Origin: Kineosporiaceae bacterium
GTDB taxonomy: Bacteria; Actinomycetota; Actinomycetes; Actinomycetales; Kineosporiaceae
NCBI GenBank assembly: GCA_052038585.1
Contig: JBQGCR010000189.1
Coordinates: forward strand, 1-28,639
Direction: 5' to 3'
DNA length: 28,639 bases
Shown: positions 2,770-28,639 of the stretch, piece by piece
Numbering within the stretch: position 1 is the stretch's first letter
Layout: every line of letters begins with the position of its first letter
The notes under the pieces: model-generated
Told to the model about the DNA's origin: nothing
Seen by the model: only the letters and a program-made list of their open reading frames with translations
Database searches by the model: none
Position numbers and translations under genes: made by a program

Positions 2770-2779
2770 CCTCTCGACG

Positions 2780-2817
2780 CCGGGGCCTGTCCGGCGGATC
2801 CGTCGGACAGGCCCCGG
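2780..2817. terminator. 38-bp near-perfect palindrome between convergent genes, likely a bidirectional terminator
   Basis: CCGGGGCCTGTCCG (2780-2793) is the exact reverse complement of 2804-2817; the inner GCGGATCCGT also pairs apart from one G-T. Starts 11 bp after the SDR stop. Confidence 0.7.
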
Positions 2818-3022
2818 ACAGGGATGCCCAAAACGCTGCGGTGCTGCCAGCACCCGCCGCAGGTCGAGGCCGGCCCTGAGCAGATGTCTTCCTCCGAAGC
2901 AAGCCCGCGTGATCGCAGGCCTTGGGCGACCGTCGGAGATGGGGTGACGTACGGGCGCTCGGCAGAAGGAAGCACCTTCCCCTGAGTGGGCCACCTGGCG
3001 CCGACTCAGTCGGGCCTGCGGC

Positions 3023-4267: not shown

Positions 4268-4305
4268 GATCGGCGACTCTAGCCGCGCTCGGGGACCTTG
4301 GACCC

Positions 4306-4352
4306 TGGTGCGCAGGCACAGTCATCCGTCCGGACTTCGTGACGGCAGTCCA
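4306..4352. promoter_or_regulatory. Candidate pair of PucR-family operator sites in the divergent pucR/acyl-CoA ligase intergenic region
   Basis: TGG-N9-ACA (4306-4320) and CGT-N9-CCA (4338-4352), 32 bp apart, as upstream of the SDR. Confidence 0.35.
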
Positions 4353-4431
4353 TGGCGTGGGTCGCACCGCGCCGGTGATCCTCTCAGGACCGGCGCCCCG
4401 GCCGGCCCCTCGAGAGCGACGGAGCCTTCGA

Positions 4432-5901: not shown

Positions 5902-5981
5902 CCCACCCCCACCGACACCTCGCGACCACCCGGCCGCGAGGGGATGCACCACGCCCGCCTCCCCCACCCGAAGGACACGCG

Positions 5982-10589: not shown

Positions 10590-10659
10590 CCGGGCCTCCA
10601 GCAAGGGGTCCGGCGGCACACCACCCCCGACCCGGCCGGCCCCGCAGGAGCGGCAGGCG

Positions 10660-10680
10660 TTGTCCGCGGATTGTCCGCGG
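10660..10680 (+). repeat. Tandem TTGTCCGCGG x2, candidate integrase arm-type sites (left arm of att1)
   Basis: 10660-10669 and 10671-10680, ending 128 bp before the att core; same sequence and spacing at 28335-28355. Confidence 0.65.
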
Positions 10681-10807
10681 CGGGACCGGGAGGTGGTGTG
10701 CCGCGCAGGGATCAACCGACACACGGCGGAATCCCGAAATCTCACTGACCTGCACCAACACCGACAGGGCGGACGCGGTGGCACCAGGCGGACCAGGACC
10801 GAGGCCT

Positions 10808-10851
10808 CTGAAATCGGAAGGCTTGCGGATCGACCCCGCCCCTGGCCACCA
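10808..10851 (+). mobile_element. att site 1: degenerate 3' half of tRNA-Phe(GAA)
   Basis: CTGAAA-TCGGAAGGCTTGCGGATCGACCCCGCCCCTGGCCACCA; differs from att2 by one missing A and 4 substitutions; no D-arm or 5' acceptor strand upstream. Confidence 0.85.
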
Positions 10852-10853
10852 CA

Positions 10854-10876
10854 CCCAGGTCGTTGACCTGGGGTTT
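10854..10876 (+). terminator. Short hairpin directly after att1
   Basis: CCCAGGTC-GTT-GACCTGGG followed by GTTT, in the position usual for a tRNA terminator. Confidence 0.5.
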
Positions 10877-10918
10877 CGTCATTCAGGACCCTCGAGCAGT
10901 CGCTCGATGCGCTTCCGC

Positions 10919-10949
10919 TTGCTCACGGTTGCTCACGAACTGCTCACGG
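10919..10949 (+). repeat. Triple TGCTCACG repeat, candidate integrase arm-type sites (right arm of att1)
   Basis: TTGCTCACGG (10919), TTGCTCACGA (10929), CTGCTCACGG (10940); 10-11 bp period; shares consensus TTGYYCRCGG with the left-arm repeats. Confidence 0.65.
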
Positions 10950-10982
10950 TTCGACCTTCCGACGAGAGTCGGAAGGTCGAAC
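10949..10982. repeat. Perfect 15-bp inverted repeat with a 4-nt loop
   Basis: GTTCGACCTTCCGAC-GAGA-GTCGGAAGGTCGAAC. Confidence 0.85.
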
Positions 10983-11153
10983 TCTCCGGGGCAATCCTGC
11001 GTCACTGCCCGACATAGCGCTCTTCAGCGGCCTCTGGCGGGTCAGTGTCGCCAGGGAGCCACCCGGCATAACCACGGATCTGCGACGCACCCGTGCGGCC
11101 TCTGACTCCTAGCCCCGGCCTACCGACTAGCGCCGAATTGCTGCCTCAGGACA

Positions 11154-12098
11154 CTAGAGGTCCAGCACCAGCGGACCTCTTCCGCGGGACACGCACAGGC
11201 ACATCCGGTCCTGCTTGTCCTGTTCTTCCACAGTGAGGAACTGGTCACGGTGATCCAGCCGACCAGCGAGCACGCCGGTGAGACAGGTTCCGCAGACGCC
11301 CGTCTCGCAGCTGCTGTCGACGACTACCCCGGCGCGCGCCAGGGCGTTCAGCGCAGACTCGCCGGCGCCGACGACGACCTCTTGCCCGGTGCTCGCCAGC
11401 GTGACCGTGAACGCGGACTCGGTGTCGAGCGGCGCTGCCGTGAACGCCTCGGTCACCGGCGTCGGAAGCCCGAGCCGTGTTGCAGCGGCGGCCACGTCGA
11501 GCATCCAGGCCGCCGGGCCGCAGATGTAGACGGCCTGCGGACGGGCCGCCAGGGCCTCCAGCAGCCGCTTGCCGGTTCCCGCGCGGTCGGCGCCGCGATG
11601 GAGGTGGACGTGGCCGCCGGGGTCTACGGCCGCGACCTGACGACGGAACGGCGATCGTGCGGGGTCCCGGACGACGTGATGGAGATCGAAGTGTGCGCCG
11701 CGCCGGGCGAGGTCACGGGCCATCGACAGCAGGGGGGTGATGCCGATGCCGGCGGCGAGCAGCAGCACCGGCCCGTCGTGGGCGCCCAGCGGAAAGGTGT
11801 TCCGCGGGGCCCCCACCGTGACGAGGTCGCCCACGGACAATGCGTGCATCGCGGCCGATCCCCCACGGGAGGCGATGTCCAGTCGCACCCCCAACTCGTA
11901 CCCCCCCGAAACGTCGGAGTCGCACACGGAGTACTGACGCACCAGGCCGTCGGGTCCGGCAGCAATGTCCAGATGGCTACCGGGAGGCGCAGGAGCCAGC
12001 GGGCCAGACTCCGGGGCGACGAGCAGCCGGACGACGTCGGGCGCCACCAGCTCACGTTCGACAAGCCGCATCCGGCTCCGCGGCGGCTGATCGATCAC
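11154..12098 (-). CDS. PDR/VanB-family flavin and 2Fe-2S reductase for the Rieske oxygenase
   Basis: RQYS flavin motif, SRGGS, AAGIGITP NAD motif, C-terminal SCETGVCGTC...CLCVSR ferredoxin; GTGA overlap with the oxygenase stop (alternative ATG at 12071). Confidence 0.93.
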   Translation of the reverse strand: MIDQPPRSRMRLVERELVAPDVVRLLVAPESGPLAPAPPGSHLDIAAGPDGLVRQYSVCDSDVSGGYELGVRLDIASRGGSAAMHALSVGDLVTVGAPRNTFPLGAHDGPVLLLAAGIGITPLLSMARDLARRGAHFDLHHVVRDPARSPFRRQVAAVDPGGHVHLHRGADRAGTGKRLLEALAARPQAVYICGPAAWMLDVAAAATRLGLPTPVTEAFTAAPLDTESAFTVTLASTGQEVVVGAGESALNALARAGVVVDSSCETGVCGTCLTGVLAGRLDHRDQFLTVEEQDKQDRMCLCVSRGRGPLVLDL

Positions 12099-13159
12099 CT
12101 CGGATCGGCCGCCGGCACCGTGGCCGGCGAGGGCCTTTCGGCGTCGAGAAGCTGCTCCATGATCCGGTGCCAGCGCACGACCCCGGCGTCCGTCTCCAGC
12201 AGGATCGGGCGCGGCGCGTCCGCAGCGAAGGCGCGCAGATTGTGGTGCTGCGCGCGGATCATGGGCTCGTCCTGCTCCTCGAAGGCGAAGCGACGCAGGT
12301 CGGCCACCTTCAGCCGCATCTCGTCGCTGTCCGTGCCCGGCTGCAACCCCCAGCGGGTCGCGGCGGTGTGGTAATGCGTCGTCGTCGCAGTCTCCGGGGT
12401 GAGCACGTGCGTCCCGAAGTAGCCGGTCCCGGCCCGCCGGTCTTCCCCCGGTGCCGTCACCCCGACGTCGAGCAGGAGGTGGGACGGCGCATCCCAACGG
12501 AAGTCCGTCCAGGTGTCGACGAGCTGGCCTCCGCGGCCGAACAGCATGTCGAACATGCCCGGGGGCGGCACCGATGCGGCCTCCCGCACGACGCGGATCG
12601 TCGTGCCCGTCTGGACTACCTGCGTGCGTACGCCGAGCATCTGCTCGTTGCCGAGGATCCCGTCGTGCAAGAAGCTCGTGTGACTGCAATCCAGCAGGTT
12701 GTCGACGATGAGATCGAACGGTGCGTCCATCACCAAGTGGTCTCGGCGAGTGACGAAGTCCTCGCTGTCGAGGATGCTGAAGTCGGGGATCAGACGTTCG
12801 TCCGGAGTACCGTCGCCCGCCCACATCCAGATGCCGCCGTGCCGCTCCACGACCGTTCTGGTCGGCACGGAGGTACCGCGCGGGATCCGACCGTCCCCGT
12901 GAGGATTGCCCACGCAGGCGCCGGTGCTGTCGAACACCAGGCCGTGATAGCCGCAGGTGAGGCGGTCGCCGTTCAGCCGTCCCATCGACAGCGGCGCCGA
13001 GCGATGCGGGCAACGGTCCTCGAGCGCGTGCACGAGACCGTTCGGTTCTCGGAAGAAGACCATCGGCCTGTCGAGGAGGGTCCGGGCAAGCATCCGCCCG
13101 GGGACGACGTCGGCCGACCAGGCTGCGAGGTACCAGGCTGTGCGGAGGTACTCCATCAT
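12095..13159 (-). CDS. Rieske non-heme iron oxygenase, VanA/DdmC (O-demethylase)-like alpha subunit
   Basis: CPHR...CGYH Rieske cluster, DNLLDCSHTSFLH mononuclear Fe motif, late QDE; NPHGDG and GTHVLTPET resemble dicamba monooxygenase DdmC as I recall it; GGAGAG RBS. Confidence 0.92.
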   Translation of the reverse strand: MMEYLRTAWYLAAWSADVVPGRMLARTLLDRPMVFFREPNGLVHALEDRCPHRSAPLSMGRLNGDRLTCGYHGLVFDSTGACVGNPHGDGRIPRGTSVPTRTVVERHGGIWMWAGDGTPDERLIPDFSILDSEDFVTRRDHLVMDAPFDLIVDNLLDCSHTSFLHDGILGNEQMLGVRTQVVQTGTTIRVVREAASVPPPGMFDMLFGRGGQLVDTWTDFRWDAPSHLLLDVGVTAPGEDRRAGTGYFGTHVLTPETATTTHYHTAATRWGLQPGTDSDEMRLKVADLRRFAFEEQDEPMIRAQHHNLRAFAADAPRPILLETDAGVVRWHRIMEQLLDAERPSPATVPAADPR

Positions 13160-13177
13160 GCTCTCCATCCCCATTGA

Positions 13178-13234
13178 TGTACTCAGCAGTACAGGAATTG
13201 GGATGAGAGTGGGCCCGACAGGGGCGGATGTCAA
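13178..13234 (-). promoter_or_regulatory. Housekeeping-type promoter and downstream operator for the Rieske operon
   Basis: TTGACA (13229-13234) -N17- CACTCT (13206-13211) on the minus strand; palindrome TGTACT-CAGC-AGTACA (13178-13193) between the predicted TSS and the RBS. Confidence 0.55.
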
Positions 13235-13253
13235 TCCCCTGCCTGCCGGCCGA

Positions 13254-13829
13254 TCAGCGAACGATGCTCGGCAGGATGAGGTCCACGACGCGCGCCGGCC
13301 ATGCCGGGTCCGCCCAGCCCCGGCCCGCGAGGTGGTCCGCGTACAGCGCTCCGAACATCAGGCTTACGACGGCCTCGACGTCACAGTCGGCCGCGACCTG
13401 CCCCGCGGCGATCCCCCGCCGAAGCACGTTCGTGCACTGCTCGCGCCGGGGAAGAATGGTGCTTTCGCGCACGATCCGGAGCAGCTCTCCATCGGTCGCC
13501 TCATCGACCAGGCAACTGCCGATGATCGTCATCCCGCGCACGTCGACGTACTGCCGCCGCATCGTGTCCAGGACCGCGACGAGGTCGGTCCGCAGGTCGC
13601 CCGTCACGGGCGGAAGCTCCGCCAGTCGCAGATGTGCGAGCGCGGCACCGACGAGATCCTCCTTGCGGCGCCACCGGCTGTACACGGTCATCTTCGAGAC
13701 GCCCGCGGCCGTCGCCACCTGGTCCATGGTGAACGCGGGACCTTCTGTGCCGAGCAGGTCGAGTGCGGCCTCGAGGACGGCGCGGTCCTTGCCGGGATCT
13801 CGCGGTCTTCCACGAGTCGTTGCAGCCAC
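13254..13829 (-). CDS. TetR/AcrR family transcriptional regulator
   Basis: GRPRD...VLEAALDLL...FTMDQVATAAGVSKMTVYSRWRRKEDL HTH; C-terminal PVTGDLRTDL pattern. Confidence 0.95.
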   Translation of the reverse strand: MAATTRGRPRDPGKDRAVLEAALDLLGTEGPAFTMDQVATAAGVSKMTVYSRWRRKEDLVGAALAHLRLAELPPVTGDLRTDLVAVLDTMRRQYVDVRGMTIIGSCLVDEATDGELLRIVRESTILPRREQCTNVLRRGIAAGQVAADCDVEAVVSLMFGALYADHLAGRGWADPAWPARVVDLILPSIVR

Positions 13830-13865
13830 CCGCGGATGGTACGCCCCTTGCGGAGACCAGGAACC

Positions 13866-13905
13866 TGTGTCATCGTCACACCGCTACGTTCATCAATTGT
13901 TACAT
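13866..13905. promoter_or_regulatory. Candidate PaaX-type bipartite operator upstream of the hydrolase
   Basis: TGTGTCATC at 13866 is identical to the left half-site at 21112; imperfect partner TGTTACAT at 13898-13905 (25-nt spacer). Confidence 0.4.
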
Positions 13906-13927
13906 CGACTCACACCGGGGTGAGCTC

Positions 13928-14647
13928 ATGAGCAGCACCGATCCCTTCGTTCTCGTCACCGGCGCCTGGCACGGCGGCTGGGGGTGGCGGCCGGTCGCCG
14001 AGCACCTTCGGGCTGCCGGCCACCGGGTCTACACCCCGACGCTTCCCGGTCTCGCCGACGGCGACGACCCCACGGGTCTCACCCTCGCCGATACCGCCCG
14101 GGCCGTCGTGGACCTGGTCGTGGGCGAGGACCTCCACGACGTCCGGCTCGTGGGGCACAGCTGGGGCGGATACGTGATCACTGCCGCGGCTCCCGCTCTG
14201 GCCGACCGGCTGCGCAAGCTCGTCTACTGGAGCGCCTTCGTGCCCGCCGAGGGCAAGTCGCTCTTCGATGAGGTCCCGCCGCACTACCAGGACCTCTTCC
14301 GCGCGGTGGCCGGGGCATCCGGCAACAACACCGTGACCCTGCCGTTCGAGGTCTGGCAGCAGGGCTTCATGAACGATGCGGACGAGGCGGCTCAACGCAT
14401 CGTGCACTCTTTGCTCGTGCCGCAGCCGTTCCAGTACTTCACCGAGCCGGTCACTCCGCTGGACCCGGCCTTGGGAATCGAGACGAGTTACCTGCTGTCC
14501 GAGCTCGACCTCGGCCTGCCGCCGGGGGAGTACGGCTGGGAGCGATTCGCCGATCGGCTGAGCGTGCCCGTCCAGAAGGCGCCCGGGAGCCACGAGGCGC
14601 TGTTCACCGAGCCCGCCGGCCTCGCCGAGGCCCTCCGGCAGGCCTGA
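13928..14647 (+). CDS. Alpha/beta hydrolase of the salicylate/methyl-ester esterase type
   Basis: FVLVTGAWHGGWGW oxyanion region, GHSWGG nucleophile elbow, C-terminal GSHE catalytic His; 239 aa. Confidence 0.88.
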   Translation: MSSTDPFVLVTGAWHGGWGWRPVAEHLRAAGHRVYTPTLPGLADGDDPTGLTLADTARAVVDLVVGEDLHDVRLVGHSWGGYVITAAAPALADRLRKLVYWSAFVPAEGKSLFDEVPPHYQDLFRAVAGASGNNTVTLPFEVWQQGFMNDADEAAQRIVHSLLVPQPFQYFTEPVTPLDPALGIETSYLLSELDLGLPPGEYGWERFADRLSVPVQKAPGSHEALFTEPAGLAEALRQA

Positions 14648-14683
14648 GCCAGCGGTCCAGGGTGTGGCGTCGAGGGTCCAAGG

Positions 14684-14715
14684 GGGCGGGTCGTGACGGC
14701 AGTCACGACCAGCCC
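14684..14715. terminator. Hairpin downstream of the hydrolase
   Basis: GGTCGTGAC-GGCA-GTCACGACC, extended by GGGC/GCCC after one mismatch. Confidence 0.55.
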
Positions 14716-14771
14716 TCGCCGTTGGGTCGGAGGCAAGCGGCGTCGGAGGCGCCGGAAAGGCGCACTGCATT

Positions 14772-15608
14772 ATGGGACCCGTGGCTCAACGACCCCGCAC
14801 ACTGGTCCTCGACCTCTTCGGTGACTACCTGCGCTACCTCGACGGCGAAGTGCGGCTGAGTCATCTCACGACGCTTCTCGAGGCCTTCGGTATCGGTGCG
14901 CCCACGACGCGGGTGACTCTGTCCCGGCTCCGGCGCGAAGGCTGGTTCGAGACCGAGCGCATCGGCCGGGAGACGCTCTACCGGCTCACTCCGGGCATGC
15001 TCGGCGTCCTGGACGAGGGGCGCGAACGGATCTTCGCCGCACCCGTGACCCAGTGGTCCGGCACCTGGACGCTCGTCATCTACCAGGTGCCGGAGTCCGA
15101 GCGGCAGGAGCGCAACACCTTGCGCAAGTCGCTGTCGTGGAACGGTTTCGGGGCTCTGACAACGTCCACCTGGCTCGCCCCGGGAGATCGACGGCAGGAG
15201 ACGCGCACCCTTGTCGACTCCCTCACTGACGAGCTCGTAGACGTCCTGGCATGCGCCTCCGAGGGGCTCGAACACGACCGCGACCTCGCCCGCCGCTGCT
15301 GGGATCTCGAGGCGCTGGCACGGCAGTACGCCGAGTTCGTCAGTGACCACACAAGCCTGCTCCGCGCGGGGGCGGAACTATCCGGGGCCCCGGCCCTCCT
15401 GGCCCGCACCGGGCTCATCAGCGCCTATCGCGTCTTCCCCTTCCGGGACCCCAGACTCCCCCCCGACCTCCGGCCGGACCCGTGGCCGGGGGCGCAGGCG
15501 TACGACCTGTTCCGCAGGGTCCACACGTTGCTCGGACCTGCGGCGCGGGCCTACGTCGGACAGGTCGTCGGCGTCGAGCCGCCCGACCCCGGGCCGGCCG
15601 CCGACTGA
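14772..15608 (+). CDS. paaX: PaaX family transcriptional regulator (paralog 1)
   Basis: LVLDLFGDYLR, RVTLSRLRREGW, WSGTWTLVIYQVPE, C-terminal RVFPFRDPRLPPDLRPDPWPG; alternative GTG start at 14781. Confidence 0.92.
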   Translation: MGPVAQRPRTLVLDLFGDYLRYLDGEVRLSHLTTLLEAFGIGAPTTRVTLSRLRREGWFETERIGRETLYRLTPGMLGVLDEGRERIFAAPVTQWSGTWTLVIYQVPESERQERNTLRKSLSWNGFGALTTSTWLAPGDRRQETRTLVDSLTDELVDVLACASEGLEHDRDLARRCWDLEALARQYAEFVSDHTSLLRAGAELSGAPALLARTGLISAYRVFPFRDPRLPPDLRPDPWPGAQAYDLFRRVHTLLGPAARAYVGQVVGVEPPDPGPAAD

Positions 15609-15746
15609 CGGACCCGCGGCACGGCAACATCGGCCCACGGCAGCTCACCGGGGCCGTCACCCTGACACAGCTCGACCTGGCTGGACCTGGCTCGTCAGCG
15701 CTCTCCACGGTTCGTCGACGTCGGACGTTCGGGAGAGGCGCACGGC

Positions 15747-17435
15747 TCAGGACGGCGACAGGCGCCGGACGACGTCCTGACGCAACGCCTTCTTGTCGAT
15801 CTTGCCGACCTTGGTGGCCGGCAACTCGGGGATGACCTCGAGCCGCTCGGGGACCTTGTAGGTGGCCGCACCGGCCGCGAGCACTGCCGCGCGGACATCC
15901 GCGAGCGCGAGTGACGCACCGTCGGCGAGAACTGCGTACAGGCAGACACGCTCGCCGAGCACGGCATCCGGCATCGCCACGGCCGCACACTGCACCACCT
16001 GGGGCAGGCTGCGGTAGACGAGATTCTCGACGTCCTCGGCGCTGATCTTCTCCCCGCCCCGGTTGATCATGTCCTTGTCGCGGCCCTCGACGACGAGGTT
16101 GCCGTCCGGCCGCCGCCGGACGATGTCGCCGCTGCGGTACCAGCCGTCAGGGGTGAAGGCTCGGGCGTTCTGCTCCGGGGCGCGGTAGTAGCCGCGCGGC
16201 GTGTAGGGACCTCGGGTGAGCAGCGAACCGGCGGTGCCGTCGGAGACGTCCACGCCGAACTCGTCCACGATGCGCACCTCGTCGCCCTCGCTCATCGGAC
16301 GGCCCTGGGTCGTACAGACGACCTCGTCCGGGTCGTCGTCACGGGTGTAGTTGAGCAGCCCCTCGGCCATGCCGAACACCTGCTGCAGCCGGCAGCCCAG
16401 CACCGGCTGCACGGTGCGGGCGACGTCGTCCGCGAGCCGGGCCCCGCCCACCTGCAGCAGCCGCAGGGTGGCCAGCTGCGCGGCCCCGTACTCCTTCGCG
16501 TGCGTGATCCAGCGCTGGGCCACCGCGGGAACGGCCGCCGCGACGGTGACCCCCTCCGCAGCGATGGTGGCGAACACTCGCTCCGGCTCCGGCGAGGGCA
16601 GCAGGACGGTCCGCCCGCCGGCGAGCATCGTGCCGAGCAGGCCGGGGCAGGCGAGCGGGAAGTTGTGCGAGGCCGGCAGCGTCCCCAGGTACACGGCGTC
16701 CGGGCCCAAACCGCAGACCTCCGCGCTGGCCCGGGCGTTGTAGGCGTAGTCGTCGTGCGTCCTGGCGATGAGCTTCGGCAGGCCGGTCGTGCCGCCGGAA
16801 AGCAGGAAGACGGCGACGCTGCGGCTGTCCGGTGCGGCGGCGTCCCAGCGTGCCCGGTGCGCGGCCGCCTCGTCGGCGTCCTCGGGCTCGGCGCACAGTG
16901 CCGTGAGGTCGACGTGCCCGGTGCGCGGCGCGGAGCCGACCACGAGGACGTGCTCGAGGGTCGGGGCGTCCGCCCGAAGCTCGTCGGCGAGCGCCTCGTG
17001 GTCGAAGTCGCGCAGCACGTCCGGCACCGCCACGGCGGCCGCCTCGCTGTGGTCGACGATGTAGGCCATCTCGTGTCGACGGTGCGCGGGCAGGGCCATC
17101 ACCGGGACGATCCCGGCCCGCAGGCAAGCCAGCGTGAGGACGACGAACTGCCAGCAGTTCGGCAGCTGGACGACGACCCGGTCCTCGCGCCGCAGCCCGA
17201 GCTCGTCGGTCAGGCGGGTGGCGAGGGCGTCGGCGCGCGCCGTGAGGGAGCGGTAGGTGAGGCGCACCTCGTCGTCGACGAGGGCCACCGCGTCAGGGCG
17301 TCCGTCGGCGACGGCGAACAGCTCGGTGCCGAGCGAGAGGCCGCGCCACCACCCGCGTGCGGCGTAATCGCGGGCGAGGTCGTCGGGCCAGGGGACGACA
17401 CCGTCGCAGAGCGGGCTCACGGGCGTGCGGCTCAC
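15747..17435 (-). CDS. sdgA: Salicylate/2,3-dihydroxybenzoate-AMP ligase (DhbE family), SdgA-like
   Basis: LLSGGTTGLPKLIARTHDDYAY, PASHNFPLACPG, QQVFGMAEGLLNYTR, RGPYTPRGYYRA, KVGKIDK; context matches the Streptomyces sdgABC order. Confidence 0.9.
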   Translation of the reverse strand: MSRTPVSPLCDGVVPWPDDLARDYAARGWWRGLSLGTELFAVADGRPDAVALVDDEVRLTYRSLTARADALATRLTDELGLRREDRVVVQLPNCWQFVVLTLACLRAGIVPVMALPAHRRHEMAYIVDHSEAAAVAVPDVLRDFDHEALADELRADAPTLEHVLVVGSAPRTGHVDLTALCAEPEDADEAAAHRARWDAAAPDSRSVAVFLLSGGTTGLPKLIARTHDDYAYNARASAEVCGLGPDAVYLGTLPASHNFPLACPGLLGTMLAGGRTVLLPSPEPERVFATIAAEGVTVAAAVPAVAQRWITHAKEYGAAQLATLRLLQVGGARLADDVARTVQPVLGCRLQQVFGMAEGLLNYTRDDDPDEVVCTTQGRPMSEGDEVRIVDEFGVDVSDGTAGSLLTRGPYTPRGYYRAPEQNARAFTPDGWYRSGDIVRRRPDGNLVVEGRDKDMINRGGEKISAEDVENLVYRSLPQVVQCAAVAMPDAVLGERVCLYAVLADGASLALADVRAAVLAAGAATYKVPERLEVIPELPATKVGKIDKKALRQDVVRRLSPS

Positions 17436-21096: not shown

Positions 21097-21110
21097 CGGG
21101 CATCCCTTAT

Positions 21111-21150
21111 ATGTGTCATCTATGAGCCGGACGGCGCTACAGTGACACAT
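21111..21150. promoter_or_regulatory. Candidate PaaX operator between divergent sdgC and paaX
   Basis: Perfect 8-bp inverted repeat ATGTGTCA-N24-TGACACAT; widely spaced half-sites resemble the E. coli PaaX operator architecture. Confidence 0.55.
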
Positions 21151-21243
21151 GTGCGTCGACGGCCGCAAGACCGCGTGGCCTCGGACGCGCGGTGACCACC
21201 CGGCGTCCAGGACAATCACGGGCGGGGCCGCGAGAGGAGGACG

Positions 21244-22047
21244 ATGAAGCCGCGGTCGGTGGTGTTCGACCTGTTCGGGGACCATCTGCGCTACCTCGCC
21301 GGCGCCGTCCGGACCCAGAGCCTCGTGGCACTGCTCTCCGCGTTCGACATCGGGGAGCCGACCGCCCGGATCGTGCTCGCGCGGCTGCGGAAGGAAGGCT
21401 GGCTGGAGACGCGACGGTCGGGCCGGGAGGCGGTCTGGGCCGTGACGCCGCGCGCCCTGGGGATGCTCGACGACGGGCGCGCGCGCATCTTCGAGCGGGC
21501 GCGTGCGCCATGGGACGGCCAGTGGCGGATGGTCATCTACACCGTCGCCGAGCAGGACCGCGCAGAACGCGAGCAGCTCCGGCGGGCCCTGGCCTGGCTC
21601 GGGTTCGGCCCCCTCGCGGCGTCGACGTGGCTCAGCCCGCACGACCGGCTCGACGACGTCGAGAAGGCGCTTGCCGAACACACCGCCGTCCGGGCGGACC
21701 TCTTGACCTGCCGGTCCCGCGGCCGCGCGGCCGACCTCGACATGGTGTCCCGCTGCTGGGACCTCGACACCCTTGCCGGGGACTACCTGGAGTTCGTATC
21801 CAGCGTGGACCGCCTGCCCTCCCCCACCGACCTCGCCCGGCTGCCTGGGCCCGAGTCGCTGCGCGTCGGGGTCCGCCTCGTCGCCGACTACCGCCGGTTC
21901 CCCTTCCGCGACCCCGACCTGCCCGCCGACCTGCTGCCGCGAGGCTGGCCCGGGACGCACGCCCACGAGCGGTTCATCGCGGCCCACGAGGCGCTCGCCG
22001 GCCCGGCTCGCCGGTTCGTCAGCGAGGTCCTCGAGCGGGACGGCTGA
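21244..22047 (+). CDS. paaX: PaaX family transcriptional regulator (paralog 2)
   Basis: MKPRSVVFDLFGDHLR, WDGQWRMVIYTVAE, LGFGPLAASTW, RRFPFRDPDLPADLLP; GAGGAGG RBS. Confidence 0.93.
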   Translation: MKPRSVVFDLFGDHLRYLAGAVRTQSLVALLSAFDIGEPTARIVLARLRKEGWLETRRSGREAVWAVTPRALGMLDDGRARIFERARAPWDGQWRMVIYTVAEQDRAEREQLRRALAWLGFGPLAASTWLSPHDRLDDVEKALAEHTAVRADLLTCRSRGRAADLDMVSRCWDLDTLAGDYLEFVSSVDRLPSPTDLARLPGPESLRVGVRLVADYRRFPFRDPDLPADLLPRGWPGTHAHERFIAAHEALAGPARRFVSEVLERDG

Positions 22048-22069
22048 CGCGGCAAGGCTTTCCGGCCGC

Positions 22070-22843
22070 TCAAAGCGCGTCCGTGACGGCATCCGCCGCG
22101 GCGGCCAGGGCCGCGGCGATCCGGGGCACGCGGTCCTTGCGGTACCGCACCGACGGCATGGAGACCGAGACGGCCGCGACCGTGTCACCGTGACGGTCCA
22201 CCACGGCGCGCCCCACGGCGGCGAGCCCGCGCTCGGACCGCTCGAGGTTGATGGCGATGCCGGTACGCCGGACGGCGCGCAGCTCGCGGTGCAGGCGGGG
22301 CAGGTCCGGCCGGTCGGCCGCCCGGTCGGCGAACCGTTCCGGCGCGTAGAGCGCGTCGACCCGCTCCGGGCTGAGAGCGGCGAGCATGACGAGGCCGCCG
22401 GTGACCGTGTGGGCGGGGAAGACCATGCCCTCGCGGTTGCCGACCCGCAGCGCTTGGTCGCACTCGACCGAGGCGATGAAGCGCGCCGTCGTACCGATCC
22501 GGACCGACAGGTTGCACGTCTCGCCGAGGGTGTCGACGAGCAGGCGCATCGGTTCCAGCGCCGCCGCCCGCAGCCGCGCGACGTCCGACGAGGAGCGGCC
22601 CGAGAGCTCGAGCACCGGGCCGGCCCGGTAGACCCGGTCCTCGCCCTGCACGGCGAAGTCGCGGTACACCAGCGCCTGGAGCAGCCGGTGCGCCGTCGAC
22701 CGCGCGACCCCCAGTCGCTCTGCAGCGGCAGAGACCGTGATCGGCCCCTCGACCTGCAGGACGACCGCGAGTCGCAACGCGTGGTCGACACTCGTCACCG
22801 CGTACGCAGGCGGCGTCTTGAACGGGGCAGACGCGCGGGCCAC
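22070..22843 (-). CDS. IclR family transcriptional regulator (GenR/NagR-like) of the gentisate operon
   Basis: CAGGAGG RBS before GTG 22843; SVDHALRL...LGVARSTAHRLLQAL HTH; TVTGGLVMLA and AVSVSMP effector domain; divergent from gentisate dioxygenase. Confidence 0.92.
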   Translation of the reverse strand: MARASAPFKTPPAYAVTSVDHALRLAVVLQVEGPITVSAAAERLGVARSTAHRLLQALVYRDFAVQGEDRVYRAGPVLELSGRSSSDVARLRAAALEPMRLLVDTLGETCNLSVRIGTTARFIASVECDQALRVGNREGMVFPAHTVTGGLVMLAALSPERVDALYAPERFADRAADRPDLPRLHRELRAVRRTGIAINLERSERGLAAVGRAVVDRHGDTVAAVSVSMPSVRYRKDRVPRIAAALAAAADAVTDAL

Positions 22844-22857
22844 CGATCCTCCTGGTG

Positions 22858-22872
22858 TTCTGCTGTGCAGAA
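22858..22872. promoter_or_regulatory. Candidate IclR operator
   Basis: TTCTGC-TGT-GCAGAA 15-bp palindrome in the 70-bp divergent intergenic region. Confidence 0.6.
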
Positions 22873-22913
22873 TCGTATGTTCCCGCCGGGGAGCCCGCGA
22901 CGAGCATCGGGGC

Positions 22914-24053
22914 ATGACCGACACGCCGCCGTTCGCCGTCGTCGCCAAGGACGGGCCGGACCAGCCCCCGGTGACGCCGGAGCTCCAGGACCTGTACCGG
23001 GGCTTCGAGAAGGCTCTGCTGATCCCGCTGTGGACCGAGATCGGCGGCCTCATGCCGCACGAACCGGTCTCCAAGGCCTCCCCGCACCTGTGGGAGTGGA
23101 AGACCCTGCTCGAGCTGGCAGGGTTGTCCGGCGAGCTCGTGCCGGTCGGCCGTGGCGGCGAGCGACGGGCGATCGCCCTGGCGAACCCGAGCCTGGGCGG
23201 CCGGCCGTACGCGACACCGACCCTGTGGGCCGCGATCCAGTACCTCATGCCGGGCGAGGACGCCCCCGAGCACCGGCACACCCAGAACGCGTTCCGGTTC
23301 GTCGTCGAGGGCGAAGGCGTCTGGACCGTCGTCGAGCGCGAACCGGTCCCGATGCGGCGCGGCGACTTCCTGCCGCAGGCAGGGATGCACTGGCACGCCC
23401 ACCACAACGCCGCCTCGACGCCCATGGCGTGGATCGACGGGCTGGACATCCCGTTCCAGTACGAGGTCGAGGGCCAGTTCTTCGACCTCGGCCGGGACAC
23501 GCTCACCGAGGCCGAGCACGCGACACCCGAGCGCTCCCGGTCGGAGCGGCTCTGGGGCCACCCGGCTCTCGCCCCGGTGTCTCAGCTCGGGTCCACGGCG
23601 GGCAGCCCGCTGCTCGCCTACCGCTGGGTCGACACCGACGCCGCTCTGACCGACCAGCTCGCCCTCGAGCGCGAAGGCTTCGCAGGCGTCGTCGAACCCG
23701 ACCACGCACTCGTCCGGTACACCAACCCGACGAACGGCGGCGACGTCCTGCCGACGATCCGGACCCAGTTCCATCGCATCGCGGCCGGCGCGCAGACCGC
23801 GCCGCGGCGCGAGACTGGGTCGTCGGTGTACCAGGTCTTCGACGGCTCCGGCCGGGTCACCGTCGGCAGCCACTCCTGGTCCATCACCCGAGGCGACCTG
23901 TTCGTCGTCCCGTCGTGGCAGCCGTTCTCCGTCGTCTCGCAGGCCTCCGCGTCGGACTCCGACTCCGGCGCCCTCGACCTCTTCCAGTTCAGCGACGCAC
24001 CGATCTTCGAGCGCCTCAACCTGTTCAAGTCCGCCACGGAGGACGTCTCGTGA
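22914..24053 (+). CDS. nagI: Gentisate 1,2-dioxygenase (bicupin)
   Basis: GRGGERRAIALANP, AAIQYL.PGE.AP.HRHTQNAFRF, HWHAHHN, WIDGLDIP, GDLFVVPSW, LFQFSDAPIFERL. Confidence 0.93.
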   Translation: MTDTPPFAVVAKDGPDQPPVTPELQDLYRGFEKALLIPLWTEIGGLMPHEPVSKASPHLWEWKTLLELAGLSGELVPVGRGGERRAIALANPSLGGRPYATPTLWAAIQYLMPGEDAPEHRHTQNAFRFVVEGEGVWTVVEREPVPMRRGDFLPQAGMHWHAHHNAASTPMAWIDGLDIPFQYEVEGQFFDLGRDTLTEAEHATPERSRSERLWGHPALAPVSQLGSTAGSPLLAYRWVDTDAALTDQLALEREGFAGVVEPDHALVRYTNPTNGGDVLPTIRTQFHRIAAGAQTAPRRETGSSVYQVFDGSGRVTVGSHSWSITRGDLFVVPSWQPFSVVSQASASDSDSGALDLFQFSDAPIFERLNLFKSATEDVS

Positions 24054-24913
24054 AGCTCGCCACCGCCCGCCTGACGTCCTCGACGGGCTCCCGGACGGCC
24101 GCCGTCCGCGTCGAGGGCGACACCCTTGTCGAGCTGCCGTTCACCGACGTCGGCGCGCTCCTCGCGACGCCCGGCTGGCAGCAGGCGGCCTCGGCCGCCG
24201 GGCCGGAGCACCCGACGGACGGAGTGACCTTCGCACCCGTCGTTCCCGCACCTTCCAAGGTCGTCTGCGTCGGCCTCAACTACAAGAACCACATCCAGGA
24301 GATGGGCCGGGACCTGCCCGAGCACCCCACGCTGTTCTCGAAGTTCGCCGACTGCCTCGTCGGCTCGACCGACGACGTCGTCCGGCCCGCCGAGACGACC
24401 GAGTTCGACTGGGAGGTCGAGCTCGCCGTCGTCGTCGGCACACCCGACGCGACGCCGGTGCGGCGGGCGGACGACGAGGCCGCCGCCACGGCGATCGCCG
24501 GGTTCACGGTCCTCAACGACGTGACGTGCCGGGACTGGCAGTTCCGCACCCGGGAGTGGCTGCAGGGCAAGAACTGGGACTCCACGACCCCGGTCGGCCC
24601 CTGGCTCGTCACCCCGGACGAGGTCGGCGGCGTCCGGCCCTCGCTGAAGGTCACCTGCTCCGTCGACGGCGTCGTCATGCAGTCCGACACGACCGGCGAC
24701 CTGCTCTTCGACCCCGTCGACCTCGTCAAGTACGTCTCCACGATGGTCCGGCTCAACCCCGGCGACGTCATCGCCACCGGCACCCCCGGCGGCGTCGGCC
24801 ACGCCCGCAAGCCCCCGCTGTACCTGGCCGGCGGGGAGCTGCTCGTCACCGAGGTCGAGGGCATCGGCCGGCTCGAGAACCGCGTCGTCACCGACCCGGC
24901 CCGGAGCGCCTGA
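24050..24913 (+). CDS. nagK: Fumarylacetoacetate hydrolase family protein (fumarylpyruvate hydrolase)
   Basis: VCVGLNYKNHIQEMG, DWEVELAVVVG, LNDVTCRDWQ, WLQGKNW, GDVIATGTPGGVG; GTGA overlap with the dioxygenase. Confidence 0.92.
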   Translation: MKLATARLTSSTGSRTAAVRVEGDTLVELPFTDVGALLATPGWQQAASAAGPEHPTDGVTFAPVVPAPSKVVCVGLNYKNHIQEMGRDLPEHPTLFSKFADCLVGSTDDVVRPAETTEFDWEVELAVVVGTPDATPVRRADDEAAATAIAGFTVLNDVTCRDWQFRTREWLQGKNWDSTTPVGPWLVTPDEVGGVRPSLKVTCSVDGVVMQSDTTGDLLFDPVDLVKYVSTMVRLNPGDVIATGTPGGVGHARKPPLYLAGGELLVTEVEGIGRLENRVVTDPARSA

Positions 24914-25566
24914 TGGGCCGCGACCTGCCCGCGGCCCTGTCGTACGTCGCGACCGGGACCAAGCTGTGCGCGGACGCCGTCGCCGGCTTCGACGAGGCCG
25001 CCTTCGCCGCGCCGTCGGCGCTACCGGGCTGGACCCGAAAGCATCTCGTCGCGCACCTCGCGGCCAACGCCGAAGCCCTCATGCGGCTGCTCCACTGGGC
25101 CACGACCGGGGAACGGACCCCGATGTACTCCTCCCCTGCGCAACGCAACGCCGACATCGACGCCGGCGCTCGGCGTCCCGGCGCCGACCTCGCCCGCTGG
25201 TTCACGACGTCCGCGGCCCAGCTCGACCAGACGCTCGCCGCGCTGCCGGACGCCGCATGGACCGCCGAGGTCGTCACCGCCCAGGGGCGCACCGTCCCGG
25301 CGTCCGAGATCCCCTGGATGCGGGCCCGCGAGGTGCTCGTCCACGCCGCCGACCTCGCCACCGGCGTCACCTTCGCCGACCTGCCCGACGGCTTCCTCAG
25401 CGCGCTCGGCAACGAGATCCGCGCCAAGCGCACCGCCGCCGGCGAGGACGTCGAGGGCCTCACCGGGTCCCTCGCCGACGTCACCGCCTACCTCGCCGGC
25501 CGCAGCACGTCCGGAGTCACTGCCCCGGACGGCACGCCCGCCCCCGCCCCCTCCCGCTGGCTGTGA
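24913..25566 (+). CDS. nagL: Mycothiol-dependent maleylpyruvate isomerase family protein
   Basis: [51 protein letters not shown]; TGATG overlap with the hydrolase stop. Confidence 0.9.
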
Positions 25567-25576
25567 AGGACTGGTC

Positions 25577-26837
25577 ATGAGCGAGCGCCCGGACGTCATC
25601 GTCGTCGGCGGCGGCATCGGCGGCCTGTCGGCCGCCCTGTCCTGCAAAGGCATCCGGGTCCGCCTCTACGAGAGGTCCGCCGAGTTCGGCGAGGTCGGCG
25701 CCGGCCTGCAGATCGGCCCGAACTGCACCCGCATCCTGACGACTACGGCCTGCTCGACGAGGCCAAATCCCTCGGCGTGCTGCCCGAGGCGATGGTCATG
25801 AAGGGCGCCACCGACGGCTCCGAGCTGACCCGCCTGGACCTGCACAACCTGGAGAAGACCTACGGCTACCCGTACATGGTCATCCACCGCAGCGACCTGC
25901 ACGGCCTGTTCCTGCATGCTTGCCGGCGCCTCGGCGTCGAGCTCATCACCGACCGGCAGTGCGTCGGGTACGCAACCGGCGACGGCGTCGCATCGGTGAC
26001 GTTCGCCGACGGGACGACCGACACCGCCGAGCTCGTCATCGCCGCCGACGGGCTGCACTCCGTCGCCCGGGGTCGCGCTCGTCGGTGACGAGCCGGTCAA
26101 CTCCGCGTACGTCGCCTACCGGGGCGCGGTCCCGTTCGACCAGGTGCGCGAGAACGACGTCCACGAGAAGGACGTCGTGGTCTACATCGGGCCGCGCTGC
26201 CACTTCGTGCAGTACCCGCTGCGCGGCGGCGAGATGTTCAACCAGGTCGCCGTCTTCCAGTCCCCCAAGGCCCTCGCCGGGCAGGACTGGGACACGCCCG
26301 ACGAGCTGGACGCCGCCTTCGACGGCATGTGCGACCCGATCCAGAAGGGCCTGCCGCTCATGTGGCGCGACCGCTGGTGGCGGATGTTCGACCGTGACCC
26401 GATCACCCGGTCGGTCTTCGGCCGGGTCGCCCTGCTCGGCGACGCGGCGCACCCGCCCCTGCAGTACATGGCCCAGGGCGCGATCATGGCGATCGAAGAC
26501 GGCTGGGTCCTCGCCGAGCACGTCGGCGCCCAGAGCGCCGTCCGCACCGAGACCTCGTCCGGTGTCGACTGGGACACCGCCCTCGCCGCCTAGGAGGCCG
26601 TCCGGCCCGAGCACTGCCGGCGCGTCCTGTCCACGGGCCGTGCATGGGGCGAGCTCTGGCACCTCGACGGCGTGGAACGCCTCCAGCGCAACGTCATCCT
26701 GCGGTCCCGCGACACCTACGACTACTCCTTCACCGACGATCTACGGCCCGACGGCGCTCACCCCCGAGGAGGAACCGTCGCTCTACACGACGATCCCCCT
26801 CAGCTCCGTCCAACTGACGGACGAGACACACAACTAA
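25577..26837 (+). pseudogene. nagX: Disrupted 3-hydroxybenzoate 6-hydroxylase (flavin monooxygenase)
   Basis: Fragments match the Rhodococcus/Corynebacterium enzyme ([68 protein letters not shown]). Frameshifts near 25738 (-1), 26069-26072 (+1) and 26738 (-2); TAG at 26591-26593 where homologs have Tyr. Confidence 0.9.
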
Positions 26838-26845
26838 GGTCTGAC

Positions 26846-26919
26846 CTCGTCGCCATGCAGCAGGGCGACGAGACCGGCCCCTCGTCACCTGGCTCGAGGC
26901 GGTCACCGACGACGTCTAC
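26846..26919 (+). pseudogene. 3'-terminal remnant of a cupin-domain gene
   Basis: With one C added at 26879-26881 it reads LVAMQQGDETGPLVTWLEAVTDDVY, resembling the recalled C-terminus of small cupin proteins (HLAMQEADxxGxxVTWxExVTDxxY); no upstream portion present. Confidence 0.45.
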
Positions 26920-28265
26920 CCGATCTCCGCGTCGCCGGTCGATCTCGACCCAACCACCTTCCCTGCGGCGGTGCCTGAGCGCTGCGCCACCTCGAGAAGG
27001 TCGACGGCGCGGCGGGTGACCGTCCGCCGGGTCACCGGCAGCCCCTCGGCCGCCAGCTGTGCCCGTGCCTGCCGTTGGACGATGACCCGCAGCCCATCGG
27101 CCTCGGCGAGGACCGCCTCCAGACGCGTGACGTCCGTGTCCGGTGCAGCAGTCGGCTCGGCGGGCAATCGGCCCGGCTCCCACCACGGGCCCGGGCAGCT
27201 CAACCTTGCCGGGCTGCGCGTCACCGGATCCGCTGCGACGGCCAGCAGGGCATCGATCGCCCGGTCGGGCGGCAGGCCGCGGTCCAGGACCGCGTCCGCC
27301 AGTACCTCGACCAGCCGTCCCTTCGTCCACAGCCCGGCCGGCAAGCCCTGCTCGTGCCGCCGCCGCACGCAGCGACCCGCCAGCTCGACCAGCCCCTCCG
27401 AGTCGAGGCCGAGCATGCCCAGCACGCGCAGGCCGCGGGCCGTCCCCGCGCTGCCCGGGCCCTCAGGCAGCGGCCTCTGGTGCGTGCCCACCTCGGCCGC
27501 GAGGTCGCGGCGACCGACGGAGGAGGGGCGGGGAGGAGGGCTGTTCTCGGTGAAGAACTCTGGGTCGGGCCGCACCCATGCGGCCACCCCAGCCGCAGCC
27601 CTGCGGCTACCCCTGGCCGCACCCGTGCGACCACCCCAGCCGCTGCGGGAGTGACTCCCCCGGGCACGGCACGCGCCGGACAGCAATGGGTCCTCCGGGG
27701 TGGCCGCAGCCGTGCGGCCACCGTCCTCAGCAGCCCTGTCCGCCGGCATCGGCGCAGGTCCCTTGCGGCGGGTGGAGCGCACGAGGTACCGGTTGGTCAG
27801 GTTCAGGCCGGCCCGTGACCGGCGGGTCACCTCGACCGCACCGAGCGCGACCAGCTCCTTCAGCGCGCGGTCGACGGAGTCGACCGACTTCCGCAGCCGC
27901 CCGGCCAGGGTCCGCCGGGACGGCATCCGCTGCCCGGAGGACTGCCCGTACCGCAGCAGCACCGCATACAGGCGCACCGCGGCGTCGGAGATGGGGGCGT
28001 CCAAGACCCACTCCGGGACGATCGCGAACCGCTCCTCCAGGACCAGCGCACCGGCATGCCTGCGAGTGTCCTGGTCGGTGTCGTGCCGGGCTTTGGACTC
28101 GAGGTCGTCGGTGTTGTCACCGGTCTGTGCGCCGGACCGGGCGGCATGTGCTGGCACGTCACGGCCCTCGCCGGACGACAACGGCAGGCGCTCGCGAAGG
28201 TCGTTGACGGCCGCACGCTCGAGGGGTTCGACTGGACGTGGCAGGGCGGTAGAAGGGGTGAGCAT
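26916..28265 (-). CDS. Winged-HTH replication-initiator-like protein, copy 2 (intact)
   Basis: GGAGG RBS before ATG 28265; 449 aa. N-terminal FAIVPEWVLD...LYAVLLRYG...PSRRTLAGRLRKSVDSVDRALKELVALGAV...NLTNRYLV is the wHTH pattern of phage/element Rep N-termini; repeat-coded low-complexity linker; conserved C-terminal DPVTRSPARLSCPGPWW. Confidence 0.8.
   Translation of the reverse strand: MLTPSTALPRPVEPLERAAVNDLRERLPLSSGEGRDVPAHAARSGAQTGDNTDDLESKARHDTDQDTRRHAGALVLEERFAIVPEWVLDAPISDAAVRLYAVLLRYGQSSGQRMPSRRTLAGRLRKSVDSVDRALKELVALGAVEVTRRSRAGLNLTNRYLVRSTRRKGPAPMPADRAAEDGGRTAAATPEDPLLSGACRARGSHSRSGWGGRTGAARGSRRAAAGVAAWVRPDPEFFTENSPPPRPSSVGRRDLAAEVGTHQRPLPEGPGSAGTARGLRVLGMLGLDSEGLVELAGRCVRRRHEQGLPAGLWTKGRLVEVLADAVLDRGLPPDRAIDALLAVAADPVTRSPARLSCPGPWWEPGRLPAEPTAAPDTDVTRLEAVLAEADGLRVIVQRQARAQLAAEGLPVTRRTVTRRAVDLLEVAQRSGTAAGKVVGSRSTGDAEIG
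27568..27720. repeat. Palindromic iteron-like array inside rep copy 2
   Basis: Units at 27568-27585 (GGCCGCACCCATGCGGCC), 27591-27608, 27615-27632, a partial unit from 27638, and TGGCCGCAGCCGTGCGGCCA at 27701-27720; 23-24 bp period with ACCCC spacers. Confidence 0.82.
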
Positions 28266-28333
28266 CCGGGCCTCCAGCAAGGGTCCGGCGGCACACCACC
28301 CCCAACCCGCTCCGCCCGCAGGGAACGGCAGCT

Positions 28334-28355
28334 ATTGTCCGCGGATTGTCCGCGG
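28334..28355 (+). repeat. Perfect tandem ATTGTCCGCGG x2, candidate integrase arm-type sites (left arm of att2)
   Basis: Ends 128 bp before the att2 core, the same offset as at att1. Confidence 0.65.
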
Positions 28356-28482
28356 CCGGGTCAGGAGGTGGTGTGCCGCGCAGGGATCAACCGACACACG
28401 GCGGAATCCCGAAACCTCACTGACCTGCACCACCACCGACAGGGCGGACGCTGTGGCACCAGGCGGACCAGGACCGAGGCCT

Positions 28483-28526
28483 CTGAAAATCGGAAGGTCG
28501 GCGGTTCGACCCCGCCCCTGGCCACC
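28483..28526 (+). mobile_element. att site 2 (probable attR): exact 3' half of tRNA-Phe(GAA)
   Basis: CTGAAAA anticodon loop, TCGGA 3' stem strand, AGGTC variable loop, GGCGG-TTCGACC-CCGCC T-arm, CCTGGCC-A-CC acceptor strand. The 31 nt upstream cannot supply the GGCCAGG 5' strand or a D-arm, so this is not a tRNA gene. Confidence 0.92.
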
Positions 28527-28528
28527 GC

Positions 28529-28586
28529 AAGGGGCTCTGACCAGCGAGCGAGAACGCAAGCTTTCGCCGCTGGACACAGGCCCCTT
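28529..28586 (+). terminator. Long imperfect hairpin after att2, probably the native tRNA-Phe terminator region
   Basis: AAGGGGC (28529-28535) pairs with GCCCCTT (28580-28586); CCAGCG (28541-28546) pairs with CGCTGG (28568-28573). Confidence 0.5.
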
Positions 28587-28639
28587 CTCGGTCTCCGTTA
28601 GGGTCGACGCCGCCCCCAGACAGCCGGACATGACCTGAC

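Follow-up and report, generated by a model that had tools for sequence, protein, structure and literature searches.

An integrase-less, Rep-bearing interval behind tRNA-Phe in a Kineosporiaceae bacterium as a probable decayed unit of a tandem accretion array

Tandem accretion and cis-mobilizable elements (CIMEs) are known from the ICESt1/CIME system of Streptococcus thermophilus (reviewed in PMC5704250), and they are proposed to arise when an integrated element decays and the rebuilt target then receives a new integration. Integrative and conjugative elements of actinomycetes (AICEs) such as pSAM2, SLP1 and pMEA300 combine a tRNA-targeted tyrosine integrase, an attP site directly downstream of int and a plasmid-type replication gene, and remnants without full modules have been described; the RepAM protein of pMEA300 binds repeats located in the sequence that encodes it (PMC2440964). 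In Islander, an intact tRNA gene together with displaced direct 3' fragments marks an island, anticodon-centred crossover is the commonest kind (2083 of 3919 islands), and tandems, which need an integrase of their own for each member, number 125 with two or more members and only 4 with three or more (PMC4383910). Here we describe a 28,639-nt stretch of DNA from a Kineosporiaceae bacterium (GenBank assembly GCA_052038585.1, contig JBQGCR010000189.1), hereafter the window, in which two directly repeated 3' parts of tRNA-Phe, att1 and att2, bound an interval (10808-28526) that carries catabolic genes and a gene for a replication initiator-like (Rep) protein. The original prediction took this interval for a member of a new, satellite-like class of mobile element that borrows its integrase in trans. 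We conclude instead that the window probably represents the distal section of an accretion array, in which integrative elements stand in tandem behind tRNA-Phe, and that the interval is an older, fused and decayed, CIME-like unit of that array; it is best read as belonging to an already known kind of structure and not as a new satellite class. The window is the whole of contig C189 in a fragmented assembly (984 contigs, 4.73 Mb, 72.5% G+C), the proteins that it encodes have their named close relatives in Kineosporia strains and in metagenome bins of Kineosporiaceae type, and the family comparisons below cover 49 genomes, apparently of Kineosporiaceae.

Attachment cores, arm repeats and integrase subtypes

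The right-hand core, att2 (28483-28526, plus strand), is identical over 44 of 44 nt to positions 33-76 of the genome's only tRNA-Phe by BLAST and starts with the opening base of the seven-base anticodon loop. The left-hand core, att1 (10808-10850, plus strand), is a degraded tRNA-Phe 3' part that runs from the anticodon loop to the acceptor end with ~90% identity to the same gene: one A is gone from the anticodon loop (CTGAAA-T versus CTGAAAAT), and besides this 1-nt deletion the core carries four substitutions, in the variable and T-stem part. The two cores lie in direct orientation with a start-to-start spacing of 17675 bp. Neither ARAGORN nor an Rfam E-value scan returned a tRNA in the window; because the halves are too short for either tool, their identity rests on the BLAST comparison with the genome's own tRNA-Phe, by which the two direct 3' halves of the original prediction stand as proposed.

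Both tRNA halves form the last 43 bp of a diverged direct repeat of 0.9-1.4 kb with 82-91% identity, which spans ~9940-10853 and 27519-28529 at the nucleotide level and reaches back to 9384 and 26919, respectively, at the protein level. This module, present twice, consists of a minus-strand gene of the HTH_36 family (the Rep-like gene), a 218-bp intergenic region and the tRNA part. The intergenic stretch that holds the P arm and promoter (10606-10813 versus 28281-28488) is 91% identical between the two copies, versus 82-83% for the Rep coding parts beside it, which makes the non-coding arm the best conserved part of the Rep-arm-core repeat.

Arm-like repeats had been reported at both ends of the interval, and their non-random occurrence is borne out by counts against chance expectation. 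Left of att1, on the plus strand, TGTCCGCG occurs twice, 11 bp apart (10660-10680, with TGTCCGCG-N3-TGTCCGCG at 10661-10679), and the same pair recurs left of att2 (28335-28355, with the two copies at 28336-28354), in each case ~130-150 bp from the core; the window holds two occurrences of TGTCCGCG-N3-TGTCCGCG versus 0.03 expected. These we term type-A P-arm repeats. Right of att1 (10854-10949, plus strand), a terminator-like hairpin (10854-10873) is followed by what we term type-B P'-arm repeats, three copies of TGCTCAC at 10920-10947 with a pitch of 10-11 bp and an expectation of 0. A 34-bp palindrome (10948-10982, with arms of 16 and 15 nt around GAGA) stands right after the TGCTCAC repeats and is followed by cargo. 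It occupies the place that the integrase stop codon has in relatives, one of its arms shares 11 nt (TCGGAAGGTCG) with the att core, and it may represent either a deletion scar or an extra core-type site.

The flank to the right of att2 (28527-28639, plus strand) is of a third kind, with a hairpin followed by CCGGACA-like words. It is 73-74% identical to the sequence found right of many tRNA-Phe halves in Kineosporia genomes, where it is the commonest kind of flank in arrays, and it is unlike the flanks downstream of native tRNA-Phe genes. Because this flank is common to so many Kineosporia tRNA-Phe halves, the array probably continues beyond att2 and past the end of the contig. A reading of the flank as native chromosome was considered and found no support, the ten family genomes with a single tRNA-Phe having unrelated sequence downstream of it.

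The genome's only tRNA-Phe lies intact on another contig, C974 (394-469, minus strand), and is followed by a hairpin and, ~40 bp past the tRNA, by the 3' end of a tyrosine integrase gene that reads toward the tRNA and contains the HxxR and Tyr motifs. Within the last codons of this integrase, 84 bp from the tRNA, stands a TGTCCGCG-N3-TGTCCGCG pair, the same pair as left of att1 and att2, and the matching pairs have the layout predicted for arm-type sites on both arms of one attP that was split by integration. Related genomes connect each arm type with an integrase subtype. Type-A pairs of TGTCCGCG adjoin cores next to type-A integrases (G026:C109) and are present on both arms in G031:C541, and TGCTCAC, equally distant from the core, immediately precedes integrase genes in G020:C103 (85.8 kb) and G031:C517; TGCTCAC is also found on a P arm at 102.2 kb of G020:C103, and type B thus likewise occupies both arms. 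The two integrase types are 44-48% identical. A further, stray TGCTCAC pair, at G031:C517 2367-2378, was rejected as an arm in view of its coding context.

Read by these assignments, the interval has a type-B P' arm at its left end and a type-A P arm at its right end, and att1 is the joint between two different elements. Because the ends carry arms of different integrase subtypes, a circle formed by att1 x att2 recombination would be without the "full attP" that had been postulated for it, and the proposal that att1 represents one reconstituted attP fitting TTGYYCRCGG finds no support, the motifs segregating by integrase subtype.

The reported lack of integrase, Xis and FtsK genes in the interval was confirmed by six-frame hidden Markov model (HMM) searches of the whole assembly, in which Phage_integrase (PF00589), Resolvase (PF00239), FtsK_SpoIIIE (PF01580) and the Xis-type HTH_17 (PF12728) had no match on the window contig; the PF01580 matches of the assembly are confined to C68, C647 and C16. 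No credible integrase remnant was found in the window by tblastn with five integrases of relatives. The idea of an integrase supplied in trans survives in part: a matching integrase with the same TGTCCGCG arms does lie beside the tRNA on C974, but the reading of the interval as a coherent element is not supported, its ends being heterologous and att1 damaged.

The Rep-like gene, complete relatives and tRNA-Phe arrays

The right-hand copy of the Rep-like gene, copy 2 (26916-28265, minus strand), is intact and encodes 449 aa, in which a disordered linker joins a winged helix (HTH_36) in the N-terminal part to a helical C-terminal domain, versus two frameshifts in copy 1 (9342-10589, minus strand), which sits immediately left of att1. 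The frameshift near 10504 is polymorphic between two straw-metagenome runs: an extra G after 10504, in a G-run of the run X2 contigs, restores the frame, so that the winged-helix domain is read in phase from the start codon at 10589; the run X1 contigs and the window are without it. Either a population polymorphism or a homopolymer error would account for this difference. The second frameshift, near 9760, follows the GLPAGLW motif and has no indel variant among the metagenome contigs compared.

In Pfam, Rep matches HTH_36 only. PHROG profiles of replication initiators and DnaD-like loaders match residues 77-176, O-like PHROG families match weakly (E ~4e-4 and 2e-3) and over the winged helix only, and the Pfam O family gives no match. 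An AlphaFold model with a mean predicted local distance difference test (pLDDT) score of 70, in which both domains are mostly >80, places the winged helix at residues 81-170, a disordered, low-confidence linker at 177-265 and a confident helical C-terminal domain at 270-434. A Foldseek search of the PDB with this model returned generic winged-helix matches only, all with E >0.1; a staphylococcal Rep-DNA complex was among them, as was the DnaD N-domain. The C-terminal helical domain had no match there and has no recognised relative. Rep likewise had no tblastn match in a plasmid collection. Five Arthrobacter phages match Rep over the winged helix only, and three of them annotate the matching gene as a RepA-like initiator.

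Iterons lie within the DNA that encodes the linker (residues 177-265) in both copies of the gene. They are 18-bp palindromes with the consensus GTGGCCGCA-N4-TGCGGCCAC, three of them in tandem at 23-24 bp and a fourth 87-111 bp away. In copy 2 the cluster of three tandem units and one distal unit occupies 27566-27722, and in copy 1 three palindromes of the GGCCGCA-N4-TGCGGCC type, spaced 23-24 bp, are found at 9987-10057. The half-sites are conserved and the 4-nt spacer is free to vary, inside the gene, at nearly all loci with a Rep homologue, across several actinobacterial families; no iteron cluster was found in the compared loci that have no Rep homologue. Such a pattern is the signature expected of a dimer-binding site. 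In bacteriophage lambda, the initiator O is a two-domain protein with an N-terminal DNA-binding domain, and ori-lambda contains four dyad-symmetric iterons that lie within the O gene in the stretch for the interdomain linker. A replication function of Rep appears well supported, because conserved intragenic iterons, as in lambda O and RepAM, occur together with the matches to initiator profiles.

Complete members of the Rep family place the gene beside an integrase. On a 16.3-kb contig of a relative (G031:C249, locus L054), positions 5239-7944 hold, on one strand, an integrase gene, three GGTTCGTT arm repeats, a core resembling a tRNA 3' end with CCA, further arm repeats (GGTTCG words) and Rep, which amounts to an intact attP between int and Rep. 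Its flanks carry copper resistance genes (a P-type ATPase, a multicopper oxidase and two DUF305 genes) and an energy-coupling factor (ECF) transporter as cargo; the contig, in which no terminal overlap was found, may exist free or on a plasmid. An integrase adjoins Rep in three more distant loci as well (L043, L048, which lies beside tRNA-Leu, and L053). The module of Rep, P arm and tRNA-Phe half recurs in G026:C103 and G031:C541, and in the Kineosporia contig C82 cargo directly follows the Rep homologue. Because the complete relatives have the order int-attP-Rep, Rep beside attR would be the normal integrated form and the lack of an integrase a derived state. Most simply, the integrase-less state of the present interval would be a loss, because several Rep homologues with readable context sit beside their own integrase, one of them with an intact attP between the two. 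Downstream of the Rep homologues of Vallicoccus soli (L056 10001-14133) and of Acidothermaceae B102 (L058 10001-12335) follow NikA-like and DUF2637 genes, and in V. soli there is also a weak relaxase-like match downstream of Rep, which suggests that some members of the family could be mobilisable by a relaxase route and not by an FtsK-type one.

Integrase-less segments bounded by att sites are frequent in the family. At least one extra tRNA-Phe half is present in ~25 of the 49 genomes, and in Kineosporia sp. A_224 (G020:C103, loci L030-L036, 1-140000) the intact tRNA-Phe (5368-5442) is accompanied by eight direct 3' halves over 125 kb, at 8792, 18773, 64423, 85668, 89061, 102338, 112983 and 130855, with one tyrosine integrase (85906-86454) and no serine recombinase in those 125 kb. 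The halves share one start position in the loop, with left flanks of at least seven kinds and right flanks of several, and PF01580 has no match in the G020:C103 array or in the G026:C103/C109 arrays. Such tandem segments match the published picture of accretion and CIMEs (PMC5704250), and the claim of a new satellite-like class is not upheld. At six of the G020:C103 junctions the core and the flanks on both sides are shared and conserved, which gives them the look of repeated attP-type joints. A gene that would start antisense in the att core, in the common left flank of the Kineosporia halves, was also considered; it is probably not coding, as its frames are inconsistent and span just 31-86 aa, with one of 177 aa.

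We propose the following order of events. In the founding element, a tyrosine integrase gene would read into attP and Rep, on the far side of attP, would read away from it; Rep would act as a winged-helix initiator with the four 18-bp palindromes inside its own gene as binding sites, and metabolic or metal-resistance cargo would make up the rest. Strand exchange in the anticodon loop would leave the integrase beside the rebuilt tRNA (attL, the arrangement on C974) and Rep beside the displaced 3' half (attR), and later arrivals would push older units outward. The interval would then be a fusion, whose left end keeps the terminator hairpin and P' arm repeats of the second subtype after deletion of the corresponding integrase gene, and whose right end consists of Rep, P arm and core of the first subtype, with the left core damaged. 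With heterologous arms and a damaged overlap region in att1, the interval is unlikely to excise independently and has probably lost that ability; any movement that remains would be that of a passenger in a larger composite cut between the intact tRNA end and att2.

In the two straw-metagenome runs, independent contigs cross att1 colinearly. The depths of long contigs (8.2-12.6 in one run and 11.7-15.4 in the other) stay flat across the interval and its surroundings. An att1 x att2 joint was absent among the matches listed, contigs being apt to drop rare forms; these data thus gave no sign of excision. Exact-pattern scans of one metagenome contig collection, in which the organism may be absent, found neither an att1 x att2 circle junction nor a type-A attP junction.

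Cargo of the interval and its surroundings

Assignment by Pfam and NCBIfam agrees with the initial description of the gene content, the interval carrying catabolic and regulatory genes and one winged-helix, HTH_36 Rep-like gene with internal repeats, and nothing else. The first cargo block (11154-15608) encodes a ferredoxin reductase and a VanA-like Rieske oxygenase, both on the minus strand, a TetR regulator, an alpha/beta hydrolase and a PaaX-type regulator, and its G+C content at third codon positions (GC3) is lower, at 0.83-0.90, than that of most of the remaining cargo, which is host-like at 0.92-0.97. The second block (15747-22047) encodes an aryl-acid AMP ligase, an ADP-forming acyl-CoA synthetase and a salicylyl-CoA 5-hydroxylase-like flavoprotein, all on the minus strand, and a second PaaX regulator. 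The third (22070-26837) comprises genes for IclR, gentisate 1,2-dioxygenase, a fumarylpyruvate-type hydrolase and a mycothiol-dependent maleylpyruvate isomerase and fragments of a flavin adenine dinucleotide (FAD) monooxygenase. By these family assignments the interval carries a predicted salicylate/gentisate degradation pathway.

From IclR to the decayed monooxygenase, window positions 22094-26812 are 80.7% identical at the nucleotide level to a block in another genus (G007:C3) that likewise has a Rep homologue after it. The monooxygenase itself, which resembles 3-hydroxybenzoate 6-hydroxylase and lies after the gentisate genes (25577-26837), is present as fragments only. Matches to its first fragment (25777-26088) are likewise split across frames in G007:C3 (L019 7682-7971), and the gene may have decayed before the two copies separated, or the G007 sequence may contain indel errors.

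Left of Rep copy 1, window positions 1996-9223 hold a cluster of genes for PucR, an acyl-CoA ligase, a DUF3556 membrane protein and an FAD oxidoreductase. DUF3556 is found in 5 of the 49 family genomes, with 90-91% amino-acid identity in two genomes of another genus, Kineosporia, a patchy distribution which suggests that the cluster spread horizontally. Because the IclR-to-Rep block is common to another genus and the DUF3556 cluster is patchy, both sides of att1 appear to be accessory DNA.

Alternative readings and comparison with known systems

Several points weigh against a decayed unit that has lost its own mobility. Copy 2 of Rep is intact, as are its iterons and P arm, and with a P arm better conserved than the coding parts the right end could still be under selection for function. 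Both arm motifs fit TTGYYCRCGG, so one integrase may recognise both, and the block of recombination by the 1-nt loop deletion is presumed by analogy with lambda-type integrases. The C974 integrase is assembled only as its last 119 codons, the contig ending inside the gene and the N-terminal two thirds being missing from the assembly. No end overlap joins the window to C974 or to any other contig, which leaves the two without a physical link, and the assembly is a fragmented bin, 88% complete and 6% contaminated. Contigs, moreover, cannot reveal rare excised circles, so rare excision is possible.

The alternative that survives best, and which we regard as a tentative possibility, is that the interval is mobilised in cis as a passenger: the C974 integrase would cut a composite island between attL, with its type-A P' arm, and att2, with its type-A P arm, and Rep copy 2 would serve the whole circle. 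The arm repeats shared by the C974 attL and att2, together with their identical 44-nt cores, fit such a cut, as do the integrity of Rep copy 2 beside a broken copy 1 and the accessory nature of the left part of the window, with its DUF3556 cluster. Transfer of CIMEs in tandem with integrative and conjugative elements is documented in other bacteria (PMC5704250). However, C974 and the window are not joined by any end overlap, the integrase is only partly assembled, no transfer genes were found in the window, and the metagenome collection that may not hold the organism contained no attP-type junction. The right flank of att2, moreover, resembles yet another element end, which would mean that att2 is not the outer border of the array.

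The satellite-like replicon of the original prediction, a working, integrase-less minimal element with its own Rep and origin that is excised through att1 x att2 by an integrase acting in trans, we consider unlikely. It would account for an interval free of recombinase, Xis and Tra genes, for an intact Rep copy 2 with a conserved iteron cluster, for a perfect att2 core whose P arm repeats match those beside the C974 integrase, for a P arm conserved better than coding sequence and for two arm motifs that both fit TTGYYCRCGG. These features are set against ends that carry arms of different integrase subtypes, a degraded att1 core with an indel in the anticodon loop, the absence of the integrase gene that follows TGCTCAC in relatives, the Rep homologues elsewhere that have an integrase of their own next to attP, and a flat depth with no junction among the matches listed.

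A third reading, which we hold to be very improbable, is that there is no element at all, but an ordinary chromosomal catabolic locus between two chance relics of Rep and att, or a segmental duplication of the module. Plain metabolic cargo with host-like GC3 over most of its length, flat depth and the lack of a mobility gene inside the interval would all be expected on this reading. It is at odds with the IclR-to-Rep block, which another genus holds as one piece, with the Kineosporia Rep homologues that are also directly followed by cargo, and with the right flank of att1, which is an element-type P' arm; the two modules, at 82-91% identity, are not recent copies, and each ends at the anticodon-loop position of every other half in the family. 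Most doubtful of all is the notion that the tRNA-Phe locus serves as a platform of large att-bounded modules, some with Rep and origin, which one or a few array integrases would cut, shuffle and re-insert in trans in an integron-like economy of 3-45 kb cassettes, the interval being one live cassette.

On the preferred reading of the interval as a decayed unit of an accretion array, rejection of the new class keeps a false lead out of the catalogue, and what the locus and its relatives provide instead is the anatomy of a so far unnamed actinobacterial integrative family, with int, attP, a Rep with lambda-O-like iterons and a sizeable catabolic and metal-resistance cargo. They also provide a reading rule for arrays, in which the type of arm repeat tells to which integrase an end belongs. 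The tRNA-Phe anticodon loop emerges as a busy integration site in the family, whose long arrays consist mostly of integrase-less segments, and Rep with its iteron consensus is a possible starting point for cloning vectors in poorly tractable actinomycetes.

Among known systems, phage satellites of the phage-inducible chromosomal island (PICI) or P4-like kind, which hijack a helper phage through packaging or capsid redirection genes and usually bring an integrase of their own, differ from the interval in that none of its open reading frames matches a phage-related family. As in Islander, an intact tRNA and direct displaced 3' fragments mark the window and the Kineosporia arrays, but these arrays are mostly integrase-less. 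Like lambda O, Rep has dyad-symmetric iterons inside its own gene in the interdomain linker, but by sequence it lies outside the O family (with weak PHROG matches only), and no lambda P-like partner is evident; RepAM is likened to Rep by description and not by sequence, through the behaviour of repeats inside its own gene. Elements of the Rep family share with AICEs a tRNA-targeted tyrosine integrase, an attP downstream of int and a replication gene carried on the element, and differ in that attP separates Rep from int; the interval, for its part, is without its own recombinase, FtsK-type Tra, Xis, Nudix or KorSA-type module, and it bears a large catabolic cargo, unlike the small cargo of classic AICEs. 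The closest likeness is to CIMEs. The interval differs from them in its target, the anticodon loop of tRNA-Phe in an actinobacterium, in keeping an initiator gene and a presumed origin, and in having ends of two integrase subtypes. An origin by decay from a fuller element, as in CIMEs, would fit the P' arm repeats that remain where relatives have the integrase gene and the several Rep homologues that lie beside an integrase of their own. Like a CIME, the interval is bounded by direct att sites, one of them degraded, is without integration and transfer genes and apparently stands in tandem with an integrase element of the same specificity.

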